From contig JANJGN010000002.1 in the NCBI GenBank assembly GCA_026770705.1, forward strand, positions 210,800,001-210,864,000: DNA of 64,000 nucleotides, given 5' to 3'. Positions 2,830 through 59,537 of this stretch are shown one piece after another. The notes beneath the pieces were generated by a model. It saw only the letters and a list, made by a program, of their open reading frames with translations. It made no database searches and was not told the origin of the DNA. Within the stretch, counting starts at the first letter, position 1. Each line of letters starts with the position of its first letter. The DNA comes from Isurus oxyrinchus. Its lineage: Eukaryota. The position numbers were made by a program, and so were the translations under genes.

Positions 2830-4340
2830 TTCAAGCAGTCTTTCTCATATATTTGATGACCCAGCTTTATGAACTCATTCTGTAGATCAATTTCCTAACT
2901 GTATTAAATCCACATGAAATTGATGCATACACTGTTATATGCAACCAATTAGGCCAAAGAGAATTTCCACTCTTATCCCCTGTCCCCACAATGCCATTAG
3001 ATACAAAGGCCATAGATATGTTTCTGGCATGAAATTCTGATATTCCAAAAGCTTTTTTATTATGTGCAATTTCATTGTGCCATCTGGTTTCCTTACTGGT
3101 CACTCACTAGATATTATTGAACATATGGTGAACTTTGTAATTAACCTCATTCTTGCAGGATCATTCCTAATGATGGGTACATCCCATGGACCTATCACTG
3201 AAGCAGTCCATCAATACATCACAACCATGAAGAAATATTACACCCAGACAGACTTGCAAATACAATGGTTCCAACATGTTTAATGAGCATGGAAAGTTTT
3301 TGGTGAATTCTGGTGAATTGAAATAAAATTTAGCAATAGCGTCCTCTAATCATTTGTACCAGCAGAAGGAATGCTGAAAGATACTCTAAATTCAACAGTT
3401 TTTATCAGTTCAAATATCGTCCAGGCATATATCATAATAGTTAACTTGTTTTTACTTTCATTGTAATAAAAGCAAAATACTGCGGATGCTGGAAATCTGA
3501 AACAAGAACAGAAAATGCTGGAAAAACTAAGCAGGTCGGACAGCATCTGTGGAGAGAGAAACAGAGTTGATGTTTTGAGTCCCAATGACTCTTCTTCAGA
3601 GCTGCAGAGAAGCAGTCATTGAAGATTGTTTTCTTGATATTTCACTAACCTTCTGCTACATCTACTGAAAGAGATGCCCTTTCTGCAAAGCCCATGGAAT
3701 TGTTTCTGTGACTTCTTCTCACACTAAGAATATTACAGTGGAATCTCTTTAAACACATTACTAGTTCAGCAAGAAATGGATGCTTGCAACAAGAATTATC
3801 CTTTGATGGCAAATGCTATAAATACCAGTTTATAAACCAGCTAGTTAGCATATATATGCTCAAATCCAATTAATCACTTGTTCACTGATTCAAACTAAGC
3901 AAAGACAGAGCACTTATCAAAAATCTGTGATTTCACACAAAAGTGTGAAATCTAAAATATGCTGCTGCATGTAAATGACATTTGGCAATGATTTGATGGA
4001 ACATAGTGTTCTGATAATCAAGATCTGGATAATTTAGAAGTAAGAAATTAGAGCAGACACAGTAAAGATAAATAGGAATTGGTTTAGCCCACTGGGATAT
4101 AGCAATGTCCCATTTCCACTATGGGTTAGGTAACCCAGGATCTGGATACATTCCTGTTCAGCTTCTGTCAATCTAAAACTGTTAGCGCACAAATTACAAA
4201 CTTTTTTTGCCTCTCACTTCAGCATGCATGAATGAGTCAGCACTGCCACACTGATTTCATCTGTTAAGACTTCTTTACATCACAAGTACTACTTTTTCAA
4301 GCAAATCAAACCAGTGCTTTGATGGAAACAGCTCTTTGCA
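2830..4340 (-). mobile_element. Very old hAT-like (ZNF862/Zaphod-type) transposase remnant, interrupted by Penelope pieces
   Basis: Minus-strand peptide scraps resemble hAT motifs: MAFVSNG...GTGDKSG (cf. F.SDGA..M.G...G), a downstream QCMH (cf. HC..H) and YFFMVVM..DG.SD (cf. FS...DGSTD). Heavily frameshifted; recognised by eye only. Confidence 0.3.
3470..3604 (-). mobile_element. Penelope-like element terminal repeat fragment with decayed hammerhead
   Basis: Reverse complement matches the 3' end of the PLE at 6018-6115; minus strand reads AGCT-CTGAAGA-A-GAGTC-ATTGG-GACTC-AAAAC-ATC-AACT. Confidence 0.85.
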
Positions 4341-4358: not shown

Positions 4359-6118
4359 AGGCCCGAACAATCCCCAACCACCACTACTCTCCTCCGTCTG
4401 GCTGAACTTGTTCTCACATTGAACAATTTCTCCTTAAACTCCTCTCACTTCCTCCAAATAAAAGGTGTGGCTATGGGTACCTGCATGGGCCCCAGCTATG
4501 TTTGTCTCTTTATGGGGTATGTGGAACATTCCTTGTTCCAGTCCTACTCCGGCCCCCTCCCACAACTCTTTCTCCGGTACATCGATTATTACTTCGGTGC
4601 TGCTTCATGCTCTCGTCTGGACTTGGAAAAATTTATAAATTTTGCTTCCAATTTCGACCCCTCCAACATTTTCACATGATCCATCTCTGACATTTCCTTT
4701 CCCTTCCTTGACCTCCCTGTCTCAATTTCTGGTGATAGACTGTCTACCAATATTCATTACAAGCCTACCAACTCCCACAGCTACCTCGACTACAGCTCCT
4801 CACATCCCGCTTCCTGTAAGGACTCCATCCCATTCTCTCAGTTCCTTTGCCTCCATCTGATGATGCCATTTTCAAAAACAGTTCCTCTGACATGTCCTCC
4901 TTCCTTAACCGAGGTTTTCCACCAACGATAGTTGACAGGGCCCTTAACCGTGTCCGGCCCATCTCCTGCGCATCTGCCCTCACGCCTTCTCCTCTCTCCC
5001 AGAAACACAATAGGGTCCCCCTTGCCCTCACTTATCACCCCACCAGCCTCTGCATTCAAAGGATCATCCTCCACCATTTCCGCCAACTCCAGCATGATGC
5101 CACCACCAAACACATCTTCCCTTCACCCCCCCGGCGGCATTCTGCAGGGATCATTCCCTCAGGGACACCCTGGTCCACTCCTCCATCACCCTCTACACCT
5201 CAACCCCCTCCCACAGCACCTTCCCATGCAACTGCAGAAGATGCAACACCTGCCCCTTTCCTCTCCGTCCAAGGGCCCAACCTCTCCTTTCAAGTGAAGC
5301 AGCATTTCGCTTGCACTTCCCTCAATTTAGTCTACTGCATTCGTTGCTCCCAATGCAGTTTCCTCTACATTGGAGAGACCAAACGTAAACTGAGTGACCA
5401 CTTTGCAGAACACCTTCAGTTTGTCTGCAAGCTTAACCAGACCTCCCTGTCGCTTGCCATTTCAACACTCCACCCTGCTCTCATACCCACATGTCCGTCC
5501 TTGGCTTGCTGCATTGTTCCACTGAAGCTCAACGCAAACTAGGGGAACAGCACCTCATCTTCCGACTAGGCACTTTACAGCCATCCGGTCTGAATATTGA
5601 GTTCAACAATTTTAGATCATGAATTCTCTCCTCCATCCCCAACCCCTTTCCGATCATTCCCCCCACCCCACCCCCATCGCCTTTTTTTCTAATAATTCAT
5701 AAAGATTTTTCTTTTCCCACCTACTTCCATTATTTTTAAATATATTTCCATCCATTGTTTTATCTCTACCGTTTAGCCTTTTTTTGATTCCTTCACCCCA
5801 CCCCACCCCCACTAGGGCTACCTGTACCTTGCTTGTCCTGCTTTCTACCCTTAATTAGCACATTCCTCAGATAATATCACCACCATCAACACCTCTTTGT
5901 CCTTTTGTCTGTGACATCTTTTGGTTATCTCCACCTATCACTGGCCCTCTATCCAGCTCTACTTGCCCCACCCCTCCTTAAACTAGCTTATATTTCACCT
6001 CTCTTCTATTTTTACTTAGTTCTGTTGAAGGGTCATTTGGACTCGAAATGTTAACTGTGTTCCTCTCCACAGATGCTGCCAGACCTGCTGAGTTTTTCCA
6101 GGTACTTTTGTTTTTATG
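4359..6118 (+). mobile_element. 5'-truncated Penelope-like retroelement (RT C-terminal half + GIY-YIG endonuclease + 3' terminal repeat), frameshifted
   Basis: RT motifs QIKGVAMG...LRYIDY (4419-4679); GIY-YIG NLVYCIRCSQC..YIGETKRKLSDHFAEH (in ORF 4847-5542); flanking 14-bp duplication tcaggagatgttag (4345-4358) / tcagtagatgttag (6119-6132). Confidence 0.92.
6018..6056 (+). ncRNA. Minimal type I hammerhead ribozyme motif (variant core) in PLE terminal repeat
   Basis: AGTT-CTGTTGA-A-GGGTC-ATTTG-GACTC-GAAAT-GTT-AACT: helix I AGTT/AACT, helix II GGGTC/GACTC, GAAA box, NUH triplet. Confidence 0.65.
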
Positions 6119-29892: not shown

Positions 29893-32800
29893 AAATTTCC
29901 TTATATCCAATTGAGCCACAATGTGATTGTCACCTGTGTTTAATTCTGAAAGATGCTACTCAGACTCAAATAATATTTAATTCTTCCCATTTTAACAGAA
30001 ACCGTAATCCACTTGTTTTAAATGTATTAATTTCTCGCTTAAAATAACTGATTCAACTGACATAAAAATACTAATATTAAACAGTAATCTCTAGGCTATA
30101 TGTATACATTAATTTCACTGATTTTCTTTTAAAACACAAGTTGACATAATTAGAGCAACTGTCTCATTTGATCTAGTGAACATAATCGAGGCATATTCAG
30201 CATCCAATACCTAATTCAATTAAAATGATCATATAATATTTTAGCCCTGTCGTTAATATTCCCTGGTAATGCAAGAAAAGCTAAACCTACTTTGCATTAG
30301 TAATTATGGTAATGTTTCAACATAAACCTTCCCCTCATCCTCAAGTGAACCAAACGAACAATTACTATCTTTAAATATGTATTCTGTGCCTCTATTTCAT
30401 TTGTAGACAGTGACATTGTGATTCTTATCCAGTGACTGGATTGGAGGCAGAGGAGATTTAACTGGCAAGTGACATCATCTCCCCAGTCCCATCATCTCCT
30501 GATGTTGCTATGGGGAGATGTGGGGTAGCATGGTAAAATCAACACTTCACCCCTACCTAAGCTGGAATTTTTCAAATGTCATTAAACATTCAGTTGGCTT
30601 AGTTGCTTTATTCAGTTCTTTATGAAACAGCCCTCATGATAAATAGTACCCAATAAAGCTAAATGTCCTCCTCCCTCTCCGCTGTAGCATTTCTGTCATT
30701 CTGTCATATCAAGAGGAGACCTTTGTGCTTTTTTAACAGTACGTTGCTCCCTTCAGGGGTCCTTTTAGTGTCCAACTGATGATATTTATGTATGACAAGT
30801 CGGAGGGAACAAGGACCAGTTGCTCCAAAGCAAATTCAAGGAATATATATAGAACATTGTTTTACAATATTTTATCCTGCTTTAAAACAAAGCACCAGAT
30901 GCTCATTGTTTTAAAAATGCATATTACTCCTGAAATTTCATTTAATATCCATATAAATAAACAAGTAGAAAACAAATGATGAAAGAAACCCTGAAAAGTA
31001 TAGTTCCAAAATTTGTAAGTATGTTCACTATTCAGAATCCATTCCCTACAGATGATTATTTTAAAAAATCAGAACACCAACAGTGTGTGGGTTGCTTGAA
31101 AATTGTACAGTGAGACGTTAAATTGCAACCCTCAAGTCAAGCTTAAATTTTCAATGTGTGATGATCTCATAAATGACTCAGTACTGCTAAAAAGTCTTTT
31201 TAATATTTATTCGGCGATATTAATCTGTTTTCTGGTTAATCTATAGCAGGAAACCTAAAACAATGTCTAAGAATTTGATGGGCATTTCAGTAAATGCAAA
31301 TATTATCGAAGGACACAATAATCATTTAGTTACAAGTCAATTTTATTTCCTAATCATAAGGTACTTGTTTAGAGATATTTGAATAACATAATTAGTAACC
31401 CAATAATTATCAGAAACCAATTGTGCCTGATATTCAAATTTTGTAACTTTAGTTCAAAACTGATTTAAAGTAATAAACTCTGGGCCAGATTTTGCTCATG
31501 ATTATTTATGTGTAAATGCTACAGCAGCTTCAGGAAAGAGCAAATGCACGATTAAATGCCAATGCCAAATGTTGCTGTTGGAGTGGCACTGCTCCACTGT
31601 TGGGTTCACAAAAACAGAAGTTAGTTGTCTGCCAAACCAGTGACATCCTTTAAATGCCATGAAGCTGCTGCATTTGTGAAAAGGATATGAATAAAAGCCA
31701 CCACAGATATTTAGGCTAGTACTTGCAAAATTAACACAGTAAGTGTTAATTAGTGACAATCAGCACCTCGGACACTGATAATTAATAATTGGAAGTGTGG
31801 AGTCTCTTTCCTTCAAGTTGTTAATTGTTTTACGAGATTTTAGAAATGTCAAATTTAAAATTTAACTTTTTTCCTTATTTGTTCTTTCGGTCTCTTTCAT
31901 AGAAACATAGAAAATAAGAGCACGAGTAGGCCATTCAGCCCTTCGAGCCTGCTCCACCATTCATTATGATCACGGCTGATCATCCAACTCAATAGCCTGC
32001 TCCCGCTTTTTCCCCATATCCTTTTATCCCTTTTGCCCCAAGAGCTATATCTAACTCCTTATTGAAAACATACAATGTTTTGGCCTCAACTACTTTCTGT
32101 GGTAGCAAATTCCACAGGTTCACCACTCTCTGGGTGAAGAAATTTCTCCTCATCTCAGTCCTACGACCGTATCCTCAGACTGTGACCCCTGGTTCTGGAC
32201 TCCCCCACCATCAGGAACACCCTTCCTGCATCTACCCTGTCTGGTCCTGTTGGAATTTTATAGGTTTCTATGAGATCCCCCCTCATTCTTCTGAGCTCCA
32301 GCAAATATAATCATAACTGACTCAATCTCTCCTCATATGTCAGTCCTGTCATCCCAGGAATCAGTCTGGTAAACCTTTGCTGCACTCCCTCTATAGCAAG
32401 AACATCCTTCCTCAGATAAGGAGACCAAAACTGCACTCAATGTTCTCACCATGGCCCTGTATAATTGCAGCAAGATATCCCTGCTCCTGTACTCGAATCC
32501 TCTTGATATGAAGGCCAACATACCATTTGCCTTCTTTACCAAGTGCTGCACCTGCATGCTTACCTTCAGCGACTGGTGTACGTGGATACCCAGGTCTCGT
32601 TGCACATTCCACTCTCTCAATTTATAGCCATTCAGATAATAATCTGCCTTCTTGTTTTTGCTACCAAACTGGATAACCTCACGTTTATCCACATTATACT
32701 GCATCTGCTATGCATTTGCCCACTCACTCAGCTTGTCCAAATCACACTGAAGCATCTCTGCATCCTTCTCACAGCTCACCCTCCCACCCAGCTTTGTGGC

Positions 32801-33333
32801 ATCTGCAAATTTGGAGATATTACATTTAGTTCTCTCATCTAAATCATTAATATATATTGGGAATAGCTAGGATCCCAGCACCGATCCATGCAGTACCCCA
32901 CTAGCCACTGCCTGCCATTCAGAAAAAGACCCGTAAATTCCTACTCTTTGTTTCCTGTTTGCCAACCAGTTTTCTATCCATCTCAACACACTACCCCCAA
33001 TCCCATGCGCTTTAATTTTACATGCTAATCTCTTATGTGGGAATTTGTCGAAAGCCTTCTGAAAGTCCAAATAAACCACATCCACTAGCTCTCCTTTATC
33101 AACTCTACGAGTTATATCCTCAAAATTCCAATGAATTTGCCGAGCATGATTTACCTTTCGTAAATCCATGCTGATTCTGTTTGATTCTACCACTGTTTTC
33201 CAAGTGCTCAGCTATTAAATCTTTTATAATGGACTCTAGAATTTTCCCCACTACTGATGTCAGGCTGACTGGTCTATAATTCCCTGTTTTCTCTCTACCT
33301 CCCTTTCTAAATAGTGGGGTTACATTAGCTAGC

Positions 33334-33574
33334 GATAAAAACAAAAAACTGCGGATGCTGGAAATCCAAAACAAAAACAGAATTACCTGGAAAAATTCAT
33401 CAGGTCTGGCAGCATTGGCGGAGAAGAAAAGAGTTGATGTTTCGAGTCCTCATGACCCTTCAACAGAACTGAAGTTCTGTTGAAGGGTCATGAGGACTCG
33501 AAACGTCAACTCTTTTCTTCTCCGCCAATGCTGCCAGACCTGATGAATTTTTCCAGGTAATTCTGTTTTTTGTT
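33334..33574. mobile_element. Fold-back (palindromic) Penelope-derived mini-element with hammerhead motif on each strand
   Basis: Arms ~33368-33470 and 33473-33576 are near-perfect reverse complements around a 2-nt loop; TSD ttacattagctagc at 33320-33333 and 33575-33588. Confidence 0.92.
33473..33511 (+). ncRNA. Minimal hammerhead motif (core CUGUUGA, GUC site)
   Basis: AGTT-CTGTTGA-A-GGGTC-ATGAG-GACTC-GAAAC-GTC-AACT; predicted cut after C33507. Confidence 0.7.
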
Positions 33575-34219
33575 TTACATTAGCTAGCCTCCAATCTGTA
33601 GGAACTGTTCCAGAGTCTATAGAATCTTGGAAGATGACCACCAATGCATCCACTATTTCTACGGCCACTTCCTTAAGTAGTCTGGGATGTAGATTATCAG
33701 GCCCTGGGGATTTATCGGCCTTCAATCCCATCAATTTCCCCAACAGCATTTCCCTACTAATACTGATTTCTTTCAGTTCCTCCCTCTCTCTAAACCATGT
33801 GTTCCCCAACAGTTCTGTTATGTTATTTGTGTCCTCCTTTGTGAAGACAGAACCAAAGTATGTGTTTAGTTGATCAGCCATTTCTTTGTTCCCCGTTATA
33901 AATTCCCCAGTTTCTGACTGTAAGGGACTAATCTCTTATGTCTTCACCAATCTTTTTCTGTTCACATACCTATAGAAACTTTTACAGTCAGTTTTTATGG
34001 TCCCCACAAGCTTACTCTTGTACTCTATTTTCCCCTTGTTAATCAATCCCTTGGCCCTTCTTTGAGTTCTAAACTGCTTCCAATCCTCAGGAATGTTGTT
34101 TTTTCTGGCCAGTTTATATGCCTCTTCCTTGGATCTAATACTATCTCTAATTTCTCTTGTAAGCCATGGTTTGGCCACCTTTCCTGTTTTACTTTTGCAC
34201 CAGACAGGAATAAACAATT

Positions 34220-34461
34220 ATAAAAACAAAAAAACTGCAGATGCTGGAAATCCAAAACAAAAACAGAATTACCTGGAAAAACTCAGCAGATCTGGCAGCA
34301 TCGGCGAAAAAGAAAAGAGTTGACGTTTCGAGTCCTCATGACCCTTCGACTCTCACTCAAGTTCTGTCGAAGGGTCATGAGGACTCGAAACGTCAACTCT
34401 TTTCTTCTCCGCCGATGCTGCCAGACCTGCTGAGTTTTTCCAGGTAATTCTGTTTTTGTTT
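34220..34461. mobile_element. Second fold-back Penelope-derived mini-element
   Basis: Inverted arms with ~15-nt spacer (34351-34365); TSD aggaataaacaatt at 34206-34219 and 34462-34475. Confidence 0.92.
34360..34398 (+). ncRNA. Minimal hammerhead motif (core CUGUCGA, GUC site)
   Basis: AGTT-CTGTCGA-A-GGGTC-ATGAG-GACTC-GAAAC-GTC-AACT; predicted cut after C34394. Confidence 0.7.
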
Positions 34462-35472
34462 AGGAATAAACAATTGTTGCAGTTCACCAGTGCGCTCTTT
34501 GAATGTTTGCCATTGCCTATCCACCGTCACCCCTTTAAGTAATATCTCCCAATTCATCATAGCCAACTCGTGCCTCATACTATCGTAATTTTCTTTATTA
34601 AGATTTATTAAGATAAGGACACTTGTCTCAGAATCAACTACGTCACTCTTCATCTTGATGAAGAATTCTACCATATTATAGTCGCTCATCTCCAAGGGGC
34701 CTCACACAACTAGATTGCCAATTATTCCTTTCTCATTGCACAATACCCAGTCTAGGATGGCCTGTTCTCAACATTGGTTCCTCAACATATTGGTCCAGAA
34801 AACCACCCCGTATACACTCCAGGATTTCCCCCTCTACGGTATTGATACTAATTTGATTTGCCCAATCTATATGCAGATTAAAGTCACCCGTAATTACAGA
34901 TGATCCTTTATTGCATGGGTCTCTAATTTCCTGGTTAATGCTATTCCCAACATCACCACTACAGTTTGGGGGTCTATATACAACCCCCACTAACGTTTTT
35001 TGCCCCTTAGTGTTTCTCAGCTCTACCCATACATATTCCACAATGTCGGAGATAATATCTTTCCTCACTATTGCGTTAATTTCCTCTTTAACCAGCAATG
35101 CAACTCCACCAACTTTTCCTTTTTGTCTGTCCTTCCTAAATACTGAATACCCCTGGATGTTCAGTTCCCATCCTTGGTCAACCTGCAACCATGTCTCCGT
35201 AATCCCGACTATATCATACCTGTTTACATCTATTTGCATGGTTAATTCATCCACTTTATTGCGAATGCTCCTCACGTTAAGACACAAAGCCTTAAGGCTT
35301 GTCTTTTTAACATTACTTGTTCCAATCCCACTATTTTTCACTGAGTCCCTGTTTGACTCTTGCCCTTGATTTCTCTGCCTATCACTTTTCTTATTCCCCT
35401 TTCTGTTTTTTGTTCTTATCCTTGATTCCCTCTCCTCTGACTTCTTGCATAGGTTCCAATCCCGCTGCTGTT

Positions 35473-36411
35473 TTAGGTTAAACCCTCCTCAACCACTCTA
35501 GCAAATATTCCCCCTAGTAGATTAGTCCTAGTCCAGCCCAGGTGTAACCCGTCCAGTTTGTATTGGTCGCACCACCCCCAGAACTGGTCCCAATGTCCCA
35601 GGAATCTGAAACCCTCCCCCTCACACCATCTCTTAAGCCACGTATTCACCTGATATATCCAGCTATTTCTACTCTGACTAGCACGTGGCACTGGTAGTAA
35701 TCCTGAGATCATTACCTTTGAGGTCCTACTTGTCAACTTACTTCCTAACTCCCTATATTCTACTTTTAGGACCTCATCCTTTTATTTCCTATGTCGTTTG
35801 TACCAATGTGTACCACGACCACTGGCTGTTCACCCTCCCCCTTCAGAATGTCCTGTAGTCACACTGAGACATCCTTGACCCTAACACCAGGGCGGCATCG
35901 TACCAGCCTGGAGTCTCGGTTACGGCCACAGAAATGCCTGTCTATTCCCTCGACAACTGAATTCCCTATAATTATTGCATTCCTATACTTTTTACTCCTC
36001 CTCTGTGCAGCAGAGTCAACCATGGTGCAATGAATTTGGCTGTTGCTGCTTTCCCCTGAGAGGCCATTCCGCTCAAAAGCGGTATGTCAGTTTTGCAGGG
36101 GAATAGCCACTGGAGATTCCTGTACTGCCTGCCTAGTTCTCTTGCTCTGCCTGATGGTCACCCATTCCCTTTCTAGCTGTGGACTCAGCCTGCGCCGTGA
36201 CCACCTCTTTATATGCGCTATCCACTATACTTTCCACCTCGTGGATGCTCCATAATGTCCCCAGCCGCTGCTCCAGCTGCAAAACCCAGGCTTCCAGAAG
36301 CTTCATCTGGAGACACTTCCCACACACATGCTGGCCCTGGGCACTGGAAATGTTCCCCGCTTTACACATAGAGCAGGAGGAGCACACCAAGGCTTTGAGC
36401 TCTCCTGCCAT
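35473..36411 (-). pseudogene. CR1 ORF1 (zinc finger + SGNH esterase-like domain), disrupted
   Basis: MAGELKALVCSSCSMC...CGKC zinc finger; VVVHIGTND and DGLHL esterase blocks. Confidence 0.85.
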
Positions 36412-36632: not shown

Positions 36633-37013
36633 CTCCCTCAGTCATCAAACTCCAACTTAAGCACTCTACTGTAGCCTAAAGCAGCACTCCAGTGTAGACA
36701 AAGTCAGCACTGTAAGATGGCCTGTTTTTATTCTCTCTGAATCTAGCCTCTGAAAACCTGTTTAAGCCAGTTATCTAATTAACTAGTTGCAGCTGCAAGC
36801 AGAGCCTGTATAAACCCTGTTTTAAAACTGGCCTAAAACTCACCTTCCAAATCAAACAGCAACTTTTAGCTAATTACTAAATTAAACAAAGACTAGACTT
36901 TAACTCTTAAATTCCCTCAGTCACCGAACTCCATCTGAAGCACTCTACCGCAGCCCAAAGCAGCACTGCTGTGCAGACAAAGTCAGCACTGTAAGATGGC
37001 TTGTTTTTATACC
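36633..37013 (-). repeat. ~280-bp tandem monomers at CR1 5' end (one full, one partial)
   Basis: ccctcagtca..aactcca..aagcactcta...agtcagcactgtaagatggc.tgtttttat occurs at 36635-36730 and 36914-37010. Confidence 0.85.
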
Positions 37014-37275: not shown

Positions 37276-37447
37276 TAATTTAGTAATTAGCTAAAAGTGC
37301 GTGTTTGGGTTGGAAGGTGAGTTTTAGGCCAGTTTTAAAACAGGGTTTATACAGGCTCTGCTTGCAGCTGCAACTAGTTAATTAGATAACTGGCTTAAAC
37401 AGGTTTTCAGAAGCTAGATACAGTGAGTATAAAAACAGGCCATCTTA
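37276..37447 (+). repeat. Inverted copy of part of the CR1 5'UTR monomer
   Basis: Reverse complement of ~36713-36884 with scattered mismatches. Confidence 0.9.
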
Positions 37448-53726: not shown

Positions 53727-54107
53727 CTACTTGGAGCTGGTGTACTTGGTCACCGCCTTGGTGCCCTCCGACACGGCGTGCTTGGCCAGCTCCCCGGGCA
53801 GCAGCAGGCGCACAGCGGTCTGAATCTCCCGGGAGCTGATGGTGCTGCGCTTGATGTAGTGGGCCAGGTGGGAAGCCTCGCCGGCAATGCGCTCGAAGAT
53901 GTCGTTGACAAAGGAGATCATGATGCTCATGGCCTTGGAGGCGATGCCGGTGTCCGGGTGGACCTGCTTCATCACCTTGTAGATGTAGATGGAGTAGCTC
54001 TCCTTCCTGGATCTCTTCCTCTTCTTGCCGCTCTTGGGCGGCGTTTTCTTGATGATTTTTTTCGCGCCCTTCTTGGCCGCTCCTGTTGCCTTTTTCTCGT
54101 CAGCCAT
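53727..54107 (-). CDS. H2B: Histone H2B, intact 126-aa ORF; isolated intronic copy (orphon/retrocopy, possibly non-functional)
   Basis: [17 protein letters not shown]...[22 protein letters not shown]...[34 protein letters not shown]. CpG-rich; no stem-loop, TATA/octamer or neighbouring histone genes visible. Confidence 0.95.
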
Positions 54108-54247
54108 CGCCACTCTCAACTCGCAACGTAGACTTACAAAATTTATTTTTAATTAGGTGGAACCAGCGAAGCCAGTCATCCGTCCTTTTCGTAGACTTAG
54201 AGTATTGTAGGCACTTGTGCTGAGAGTTTTCTGCTGTCATTACCCCT

Positions 54248-54318
54248 CTGGAAAAACTCAGCAGCATCGGCGGAGAAGAAAAGAGTTGACGTTTCGAGTC
54301 GTCATGACCCTGAGTGAG
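54248..54318 (-). mobile_element. PLE terminal-repeat fragment (3' half of hammerhead), internally deleted
   Basis: ctggaaaaactcagcagcatcggcggagaagaaaagagttgacgtttcgagtcgtcatgaccc matches the 34273-34344 arm, minus a 9-nt and a ~12-nt deletion. Confidence 0.88.
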
Positions 54319-59433: not shown

Positions 59434-59472
59434 AGTTCTGATGAAGAGTCATACGGACTCGAAACATAAACT
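59434..59472 (+). ncRNA. Minimal hammerhead motif with canonical CUGAUGA core
   Basis: AGTT-CTGATGA-A-GAGTC-ATACG-GACTC-GAAAC-ATA-AACT. Confidence 0.72.
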
Positions 59473-59537
59473 GTATTCCTCTCCGCAGATGCTGTCAGAC
59501 CTGCTGAGTTTTTCCAGCTATTTTTATTTTTGTTTCA
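59434..59537 (+). mobile_element. Solo PLE terminal repeat inserted in the Gypsy 3' region
   Basis: Flanked by gaagcctctgagagacttgactt (59411-59433 and 59538-59560). Confidence 0.9.

Follow-up and report, generated by a model that had tools for sequence, protein, structure and literature searches.

A 241-bp fold-back insertion in Isurus oxyrinchus, probably the shortest form of head-to-head Penelope element integration

Insertions of EN+ Penelope elements (PLEs) have been described as units with an inverted 5'-truncated copy, a 30-40-bp tail on one end and a TSD (PMC8557442, PMC3846280). The formation of these inverted, one-tailed insertions is called unresolved (PMC8557442). For the PLE of Anolis carolinensis, both strands are cut and extended in vitro, and two internal start sites bracket the tail; the protein has been modelled in dimeric form and works without hammerhead cleavage (PMC11167929). 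The minimal type-I hammerhead of PLEs has a 4-bp stem I, an extra base after A9, a G10.1-C11.1 pair and a palindromic stem III stub (PMC4209133). A further PLE-derived group, the non-LTR retrozymes, is non-coding and forms head-to-tail tandems with at least two intact hammerheads (bioRxiv 10.64898/2026.07.22.740005).

The window analysed here, a stretch of 64,000 nt from the Isurus oxyrinchus assembly, contains a short palindromic insertion that resembles EN+ PLE insertions in its head-to-head arms, one-sided tail, TSD, pLTR hammerhead and tandem full-length parents. In contrast to those insertions, both halves are cut to about 100 nt and are free of ORF sequence, at least 9,325 such stubs are present, and their 5' ends are piled up within a few bases. 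The fold-back structure as such is already described for PLEs; the value of the present data is in the counts, which make the integration mechanism testable. The features of the locus are as follows.

32333..35781, minus strand: decayed host LINE (AP endonuclease and RT; Pfam RVT_1 and Exo_endo_phos), limits approximate
33320..33333, no strand: left copy of the TSD, an exact match to 33575-33588
33334..33367, minus strand: 34-nt PLE tail, on one arm only (arm positions about +103 to +136)
33368..33470, minus strand: inverted arm, pLTR end from position 0 to +102
33432..33470, minus strand: hammerhead-like motif, minimal type I, A6U core, stem III CG lost
33471..33472, no strand: junction GA between the two putative cDNA ends (51 exact junction-context copies genome-wide)
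33473..33511, plus strand: hammerhead-like motif, minimal type I (stem I 33473-33476/33508-33511, stem II 33485-33489/33495-33499, GAAA)
33473..33574, plus strand: direct arm, pLTR end from position 0, tailless
33575..33588, no strand: right copy of the TSD, an exact match to the left copy
34206..34475, no strand: another fold-back of this family, inserted independently (insert of 242 bp at 34220-34461, with a 14-bp TSD of its own and another junction)

The insert is 241 bp long (33334-33574), and its TSD (33320-33333 / 33575-33588) is exact at 14 bp and not extendable to 15, in agreement with an earlier note on this DNA. Its inverted repeats (33368-33470 and 33473-33575) are 103 nt each, 97% complementary and 2 nt apart. 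The same note had composed the insert of two ~103-bp arms and a 2-nt loop; the arms and the spacing are found as described, and an unpaired extension of 34 nt (33334-33367), the PLE tail, has to be added. In the intact parent element at locus L136 this tail is contiguous with the arm. Arm positions are counted from 33473, the A among the first bases of the arm, as position 0. The plus strand of the insert folds as one hairpin (-189.7 kcal/mol, z = -34.5, 0 of 200 shuffles as good); a single arm folded alone gives no structure better than shuffles, which is expected of a minimal hammerhead. The two arms have in common three non-consensus bases (arm positions 54, 70 and 74) and, at position 8, the common T allele; a single CpG site distinguishes them. 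The variants of the arms had been regarded as private. Three shared non-consensus bases are indeed present, and the 70+74 double variant is rare rather than unique, with 11 matches genome-wide, of which two are the arms of this insert and one other belongs to the same subfamily.

The host LINE is presumably CR1-like. Excision of the insert together with one TSD copy restores the open frame of its minus-strand ORF. Both fold-backs (33334-33574 and 34220-34461) sit in this LINE, and their empty sites restore the frame locally. Upstream of the LINE ORFs, the window holds a 172-nt inverted repeat (36713-36884 / 37276-37447, 95%) with a 391-nt spacer, and also a 105-nt direct repeat (36634/36913). 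Further PLE sequences in the window are a decayed 5'-truncated copy of a related subfamily at about 4380-6115 (plus strand), which has long stretches in common with the parent and a terminal arm with the A6U core, and two solo arms of older subfamilies, one with a tail at 3466-3607 (minus strand) and one at 59434-59535 (plus strand) that has kept a canonical CUGAUGA core. An intronless open frame at 53727-54119 (minus strand), which resembles histone H2B, has an internally deleted PLE arm upstream at about 54250-54311.

At L136 the parent is repeated in tandem in units of 3.35 kb, and its ORFs are separated by sequence that includes the arm and tail of the insert. The arm of the insert matches the pLTR end of this element, which bears out its identification as a hammerhead-bearing Penelope terminal repeat. 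The parent ORF encodes 926 aa with an RVT_1 domain above cut-off and, C-terminal to the RT, a GIY-YIG match below cut-off (E 0.0009). The hallmarks of an EN+ PLE insertion are thus found together: an RT followed by a C-terminal GIY-YIG, a tandem-formed pLTR with a hammerhead-like motif, a TSD, and a 5'-truncated copy in inverted orientation, with the one-sided tail of 30-40 bp (34 nt in 33334-33367). The parent translation has a C-x4-C-x2-C linker upstream of the endonuclease. A CX2-5CxxC linker before GIY-YIG defines the Neptune/Nematis clades in PMC8557442, and this motif in the translated sequence points to a Neptune/Nematis-type PLE. The first ATG of the parent follows arm position 0 by about 170 nt. 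A possible intron of 88 nt (L136 6144-6231) reaches from a GT donor at about +84 to an AG just before the ATG and resembles the short 5' intron of D. virilis Penelope.

According to the earlier note, each strand of the insert carries a hammerhead. The layout of the motif is present in both arms; the core reads CUGUUGA instead of CUGANGA, and the minus-strand copy is without the stem III CG. In the plus-strand motif, the core lies at 33477-33483 with the A6U change at 33480, all nine stem pairs are standard or G-U, and the cut is predicted after 33507 (= +35). Stems I and II, the extra base after A9, the G10.1-C11.1 pair, GAAA and an NUH triplet are all present, and only the conserved core C3 U4 G5 A6 N7 G8 A9 departs from the minimal type-I form, by A6U. 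The motif is therefore like the metazoan PLE minimal hammerheads in stem I, the extra base at A9, the G10.1-C11.1 pair and the stem III stub, but unlike them in that A6 is replaced by U in the whole subfamily including the intact parent. Position 6 is T in 237 and C in 3 of 240 aligned arms and A in none, and it is A in one of the 100 arms of the fold-back list. Canonical cores in arm context number 145 genome-wide against 78,036 arm cores, counted with a different pattern, which is about what mutation would give.

An A6C hammerhead variant has low but detectable activity (PMC3088659); judged from the sequence, cleavage by the A6U form would likely be weak. In the literature searched, the one match for this change in a hammerhead concerned twister. 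An Rfam scan of the insert gave no hit to a hammerhead family, only miRNA-hairpin hits below the gathering score that reflect the hairpin alone. The suggestion that the ribozyme would be self-masked in a transcript of the full palindrome is borne out by the folding model, with predicted pair probabilities for the hammerhead of 1e-21 or less in the full hairpin. Such masking would matter little, because the core is A6U family-wide.

For the first 100 arm cores of contig C1, the surrounding DNA was fetched (all 100 were recovered), and ends were mapped by BLAST chaining. A head-to-head partner accompanies 61 of the 100 cores, corresponding to 43 distinct insertions once a double count in the initial 44 is corrected. 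The other 39 are without a partner in the fetched DNA, and 15 of them start at the position-0 hotspot. Altogether, 44 of the 100 arms start between -15 and +15. The layout of the pairs is uniform: of the 39 pairs in which both ends could be resolved, 37 combine a tail end (about +135 to +137) with a tailless end (about +103), and 33 of the 44 counted pairs have a TSD of 13-16 bp. By their starts, 18 pairs are hotspot-hotspot, 17 are long-long and one is mixed (concordant in 35 of 36; binomial p about 1e-9); in seven further pairs one arm starts downstream of +15. In six of the 17 long pairs, the parent positions at which the two arms start are no more than 8 nt apart; two of these six have 50-61 unaligned bases between the arms. 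The layout of one tail and a 13-16-bp TSD continues without a break up to an arm length of 2.3 kb.

Palindromes that are nearly perfect, with 1.1-2.3-kb arms and this tail and TSD layout, are found at L141 654-2956, L142 787-3359 and L139 4167-8621, and both arms of the palindrome at L141 begin at the same parent base. Insertions at L238, L244 and L252/L253 end at +279, about 100 nt into the ORF, and one at L243 ends at +231. The ends at +279 possibly mark a third RT start site.

The hairpin probably represents head-to-head insertion of a Neptune-type PLE in its shortest form, made in one event in which both nicks prime cDNAs on the same RNA. The enzyme of the element would nick both target strands about 14-15 bp apart. 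The two 3' ends would prime reverse transcription on one RNA at internal sites 34 nt apart (about +103 and +137). If the first pLTR is primed, the two cDNAs would each run to the RNA 5' end near position 0, which is the predicted transcription start, and leave a 240-bp stub; if a later pLTR is primed, long palindromes would be formed. The cDNA ends would then be joined bluntly, via microhomology or with a few extra bases. Twin priming on one RNA would entail the one-sided tail, the shared alleles, the pairing of short with short and long with long arms, and the equal lengths. The hammerhead would be a passenger whose A6U core makes it a predicted poor cutter, and the fold-back stub is likely a dead end. 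In L1 twin priming, both target nicks prime on one RNA and an inversion of a non-overlapping upstream part results. The process proposed here is alike in its two nicks on one RNA, whereas both primers would copy the same stretch and thereby produce a mirror duplication.

The Anolis Poseidon PLE (PMC11167929) is an experimental counterpart, being alike in the two tail-bracketing RT start sites, the cutting and extension of both strands and the dispensable hammerhead. It differs in clade and in pLTR layout, as the ORF starts in stem II there and the ATG is located about 170 nt past position 0 here. In the accessible text of that study, head-to-head products or a shared 5' end are not derived. 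A literature search, with most subscription journals outside its coverage, found no paper stating a one-RNA run-off model for PLEs. A more far-reaching formulation is put forward tentatively, its chance being somewhat short of even. The stubs may be double 'strong-stop' cDNAs, with a PLE dimer priming both nicks on the first pLTR of one RNA, and their junctions would map the transcription start to the base. Twin priming would then explain head-to-head PLE insertions of any size, the hammerhead would have been A6U in some 78,000 such events, and junctions may be handed on by a minority of fold-backs to neighbours or offspring.

The abundance and the junctions of the family were assessed by exact-pattern counts in the 4.98-Gb genome. 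Arm cores number 78,036, and arms in one native upstream context 3,345. Short fold-backs, counted with a pattern of 10-30 nt between two core anchors that limits arm ends to about -21 to +9, amount to at least 9,325, so that fold-backs recur as the earlier note had anticipated. The GA junction context of this insert accounts for 51 copies, about 0.5% of the short fold-backs. Among 30 GA-junction copies, the tail is on the left in 13, on the right in 12 and undetected in 5. With the three variable core letters disregarded, 33 junction classes are distinguished among the first 50 fold-backs of contig C1; at most seven copies belong to one class, and inserted bases occur in 18 of the 50. In a sample of 50 longer junctions, about 33, counted by eye, were seen once. 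Recurrence of the top class (7/50) has a P of about 0.05 in a simple independent-ends simulation (34 draws, against 32 insert-free junctions in the sample), and repeated junctions occur on different arm haplotypes. Junctions unique to each copy had been named as the outcome that would speak against a propagating unit. This is largely what is seen, given the 33 classes in 50 and recurrent junctions on different haplotypes and on both tail sides.

Two pairs of nearby loci have complex junctions in common. L292 and L293 (contig C1, 123 kb apart) are the only genome matches to their junction, and the junctions of L318 and L319 (622 kb apart) are one base apart; in both pairs, the TSDs and tail haplotypes differ and the tails lie on opposite sides. 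Because these junctions are shared between loci with different TSDs, junctions are sometimes copied between loci. We read this sharing as local gene conversion or templating, with sharing by descent still a candidate.

The origin of variants common to both arms bears on the choice of template. Sharing was counted in 125 de-duplicated pairs from loci L001-L225, a biased set as the loci were partly chosen by likeness to the query. In short fold-backs, both arms have 29 non-CpG variants in common, where shuffled pairing predicts 1.4 (at most 11 in 500 shuffles), and 116 are unshared. Pairs more than 400 nt apart have 8 shared variants against 0.4 expected, and ten mid-size pairs have none. Most shared variants are subfamily alleles; non-CpG alleles of this kind agree between arms in 5/5 pairs for 46C, 5/6 for 69A, 4/5 for 63G and 5/8 for 21A, and arm alleles also agree across spacers of more than 1 kb. 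The earlier proposal that both arms came from one template is likely correct, as paired arms share subfamily alleles far above the shuffled expectation.

Its alternative, homogenisation of the arms, concerns the private variants. Here, 9 are shared and 116 unshared in 102 short fold-backs, against 0 and 37 in 23 wider pairs (p = 0.12). Because private sharing is seen nine times in short fold-backs and in none of the wider pairs, conversion may add to the three private variants of this insert. That all three stem from later arm-arm gene conversion and not from the template RNA is a real possibility, although we lean against it. Conversion as such is suggested by the junction sharing between nearby loci, but most arm differences are left unrepaired (the 116 unshared non-CpG sites) and a rare core variant is common to both arms of a 2.1-kb pair. 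In addition, an arm at L220, of the same subfamily, carries both 70A and 74A, though this may be due to chance.

The pile-up of 5' ends is sharp, with 59 of 100 arm ends of 50 fold-backs on contig C1 mapping to -1, 0 or +1. A TATA-like motif lies 29-32 nt upstream of the arm start in five of six upstream variants examined. One upstream variant reads YYANWYY at position 0, which we take to be the initiator consensus. Contigs from public runs (23 runs listed, most of them only guessed to be RNA) cover the arm and are of a kind that carries no start, strand or level information. Nine of 12 listed joints in such contigs land at -3 to +2, eight coming from a run of probably DNA kind, and there are six more beyond those listed. 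An extra, cap-derived G did not emerge clearly: G is the commonest letter before position -1 among the listed matches, and at the 30 loci read most cases have an explanation in microhomology to the TSD or the opposite arm. The promoter of D. virilis Penelope is described as TATA-less and internal (PMC2377424), which counts against reading position 0 simply as a start site. Hammerhead cleavage was considered as a source of the arm 5' ends and rejected, as the ends peak at -1 to +1 and the predicted cut at +35 is without a pile-up.

Twin priming might also have occurred without position 0 being a transcription start; at the hammerhead's 5' edge, the RT might pause or the RNA might have been processed to an end. 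We consider this unlikely, if worth keeping in view. Position 0 coincides exactly with the 5' strand of stem I, the D. virilis Penelope intron ends at helix I (PMC4209133), and one subfamily here has a pyrimidine tract and AG at position 0. Among 30 units holding the ORF start, only four begin at -12 to +9, 13 begin further upstream, six pass the locus edge and seven begin at +96 to +141; many templates therefore do not start at position 0. However, a pause passed by about half of the arms should yield many short-long pairs, and one was seen in 36. A processed end is likewise opposed by the lack of a pile-up at +35 and by the search for spliced copies or templates, in which two junctions of a donor near +82, with +2 and with the base preceding the ATG, gave 0 matches and no spliced joint was found in the public-run contigs. 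A run-off at the transcription start remains the preferred reading for twin priming.

A second arm could also be a DNA copy of the first, made from a single cDNA whose 3' end folds back and serves as primer on the same strand. Self-priming of this type was proposed for bdelloid PLEs (PMC3846280) and would suit the shared alleles of the arms, their often near-equal lengths and the several junctions that are short palindromes. We regard it as improbable here. Only one arm carries the tail, and in six of nine clearly unequal long pairs it is the arm lacking it that is longer, by up to 1.2 kb, which self-copying of the tail-bearing cDNA would not easily produce. Moreover, the tailless end lies consistently near +103 and directly against the TSD, which a priming site would lead one to expect.

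The self-propagating, non-coding 'hairpin retrozyme' of the earlier note, whose whole palindromes would be transcribed and re-inserted as a unit, has in its favour thousands of copies of nearly one length, the recurrent top class and the two look-alike junction pairs with tails on opposite sides, but it is very improbable and largely refuted by the junction spectrum: the junctions are too diverse, the GA junction is rare, occurs with the tail on either side and on different arm haplotypes, the look-alike pairs differ in tail haplotype and fit local conversion better than descent, and the layout runs unbroken to 2.3-kb arms. Non-LTR retrozymes are alike in being non-coding, PLE-derived and hammerhead-bearing and differ from the present head-to-head pair with its variant A6U core, tail and TSD; head-to-tail units with intact hammerheads were not found here, nor was propagation of a fixed unit, with the two look-alike junction pairs as the exception.

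For twin priming, the counts predict one RNA, two primers and a shared 5' run-off point, which is testable with the existing in vitro system. That the A6U core occurs throughout the family favours the view that jumping does not depend on hammerhead cleavage. In host transcripts, dsRNA could potentially arise in large amounts from these hairpins, which number in the thousands and are nearly perfect over 100 bp.
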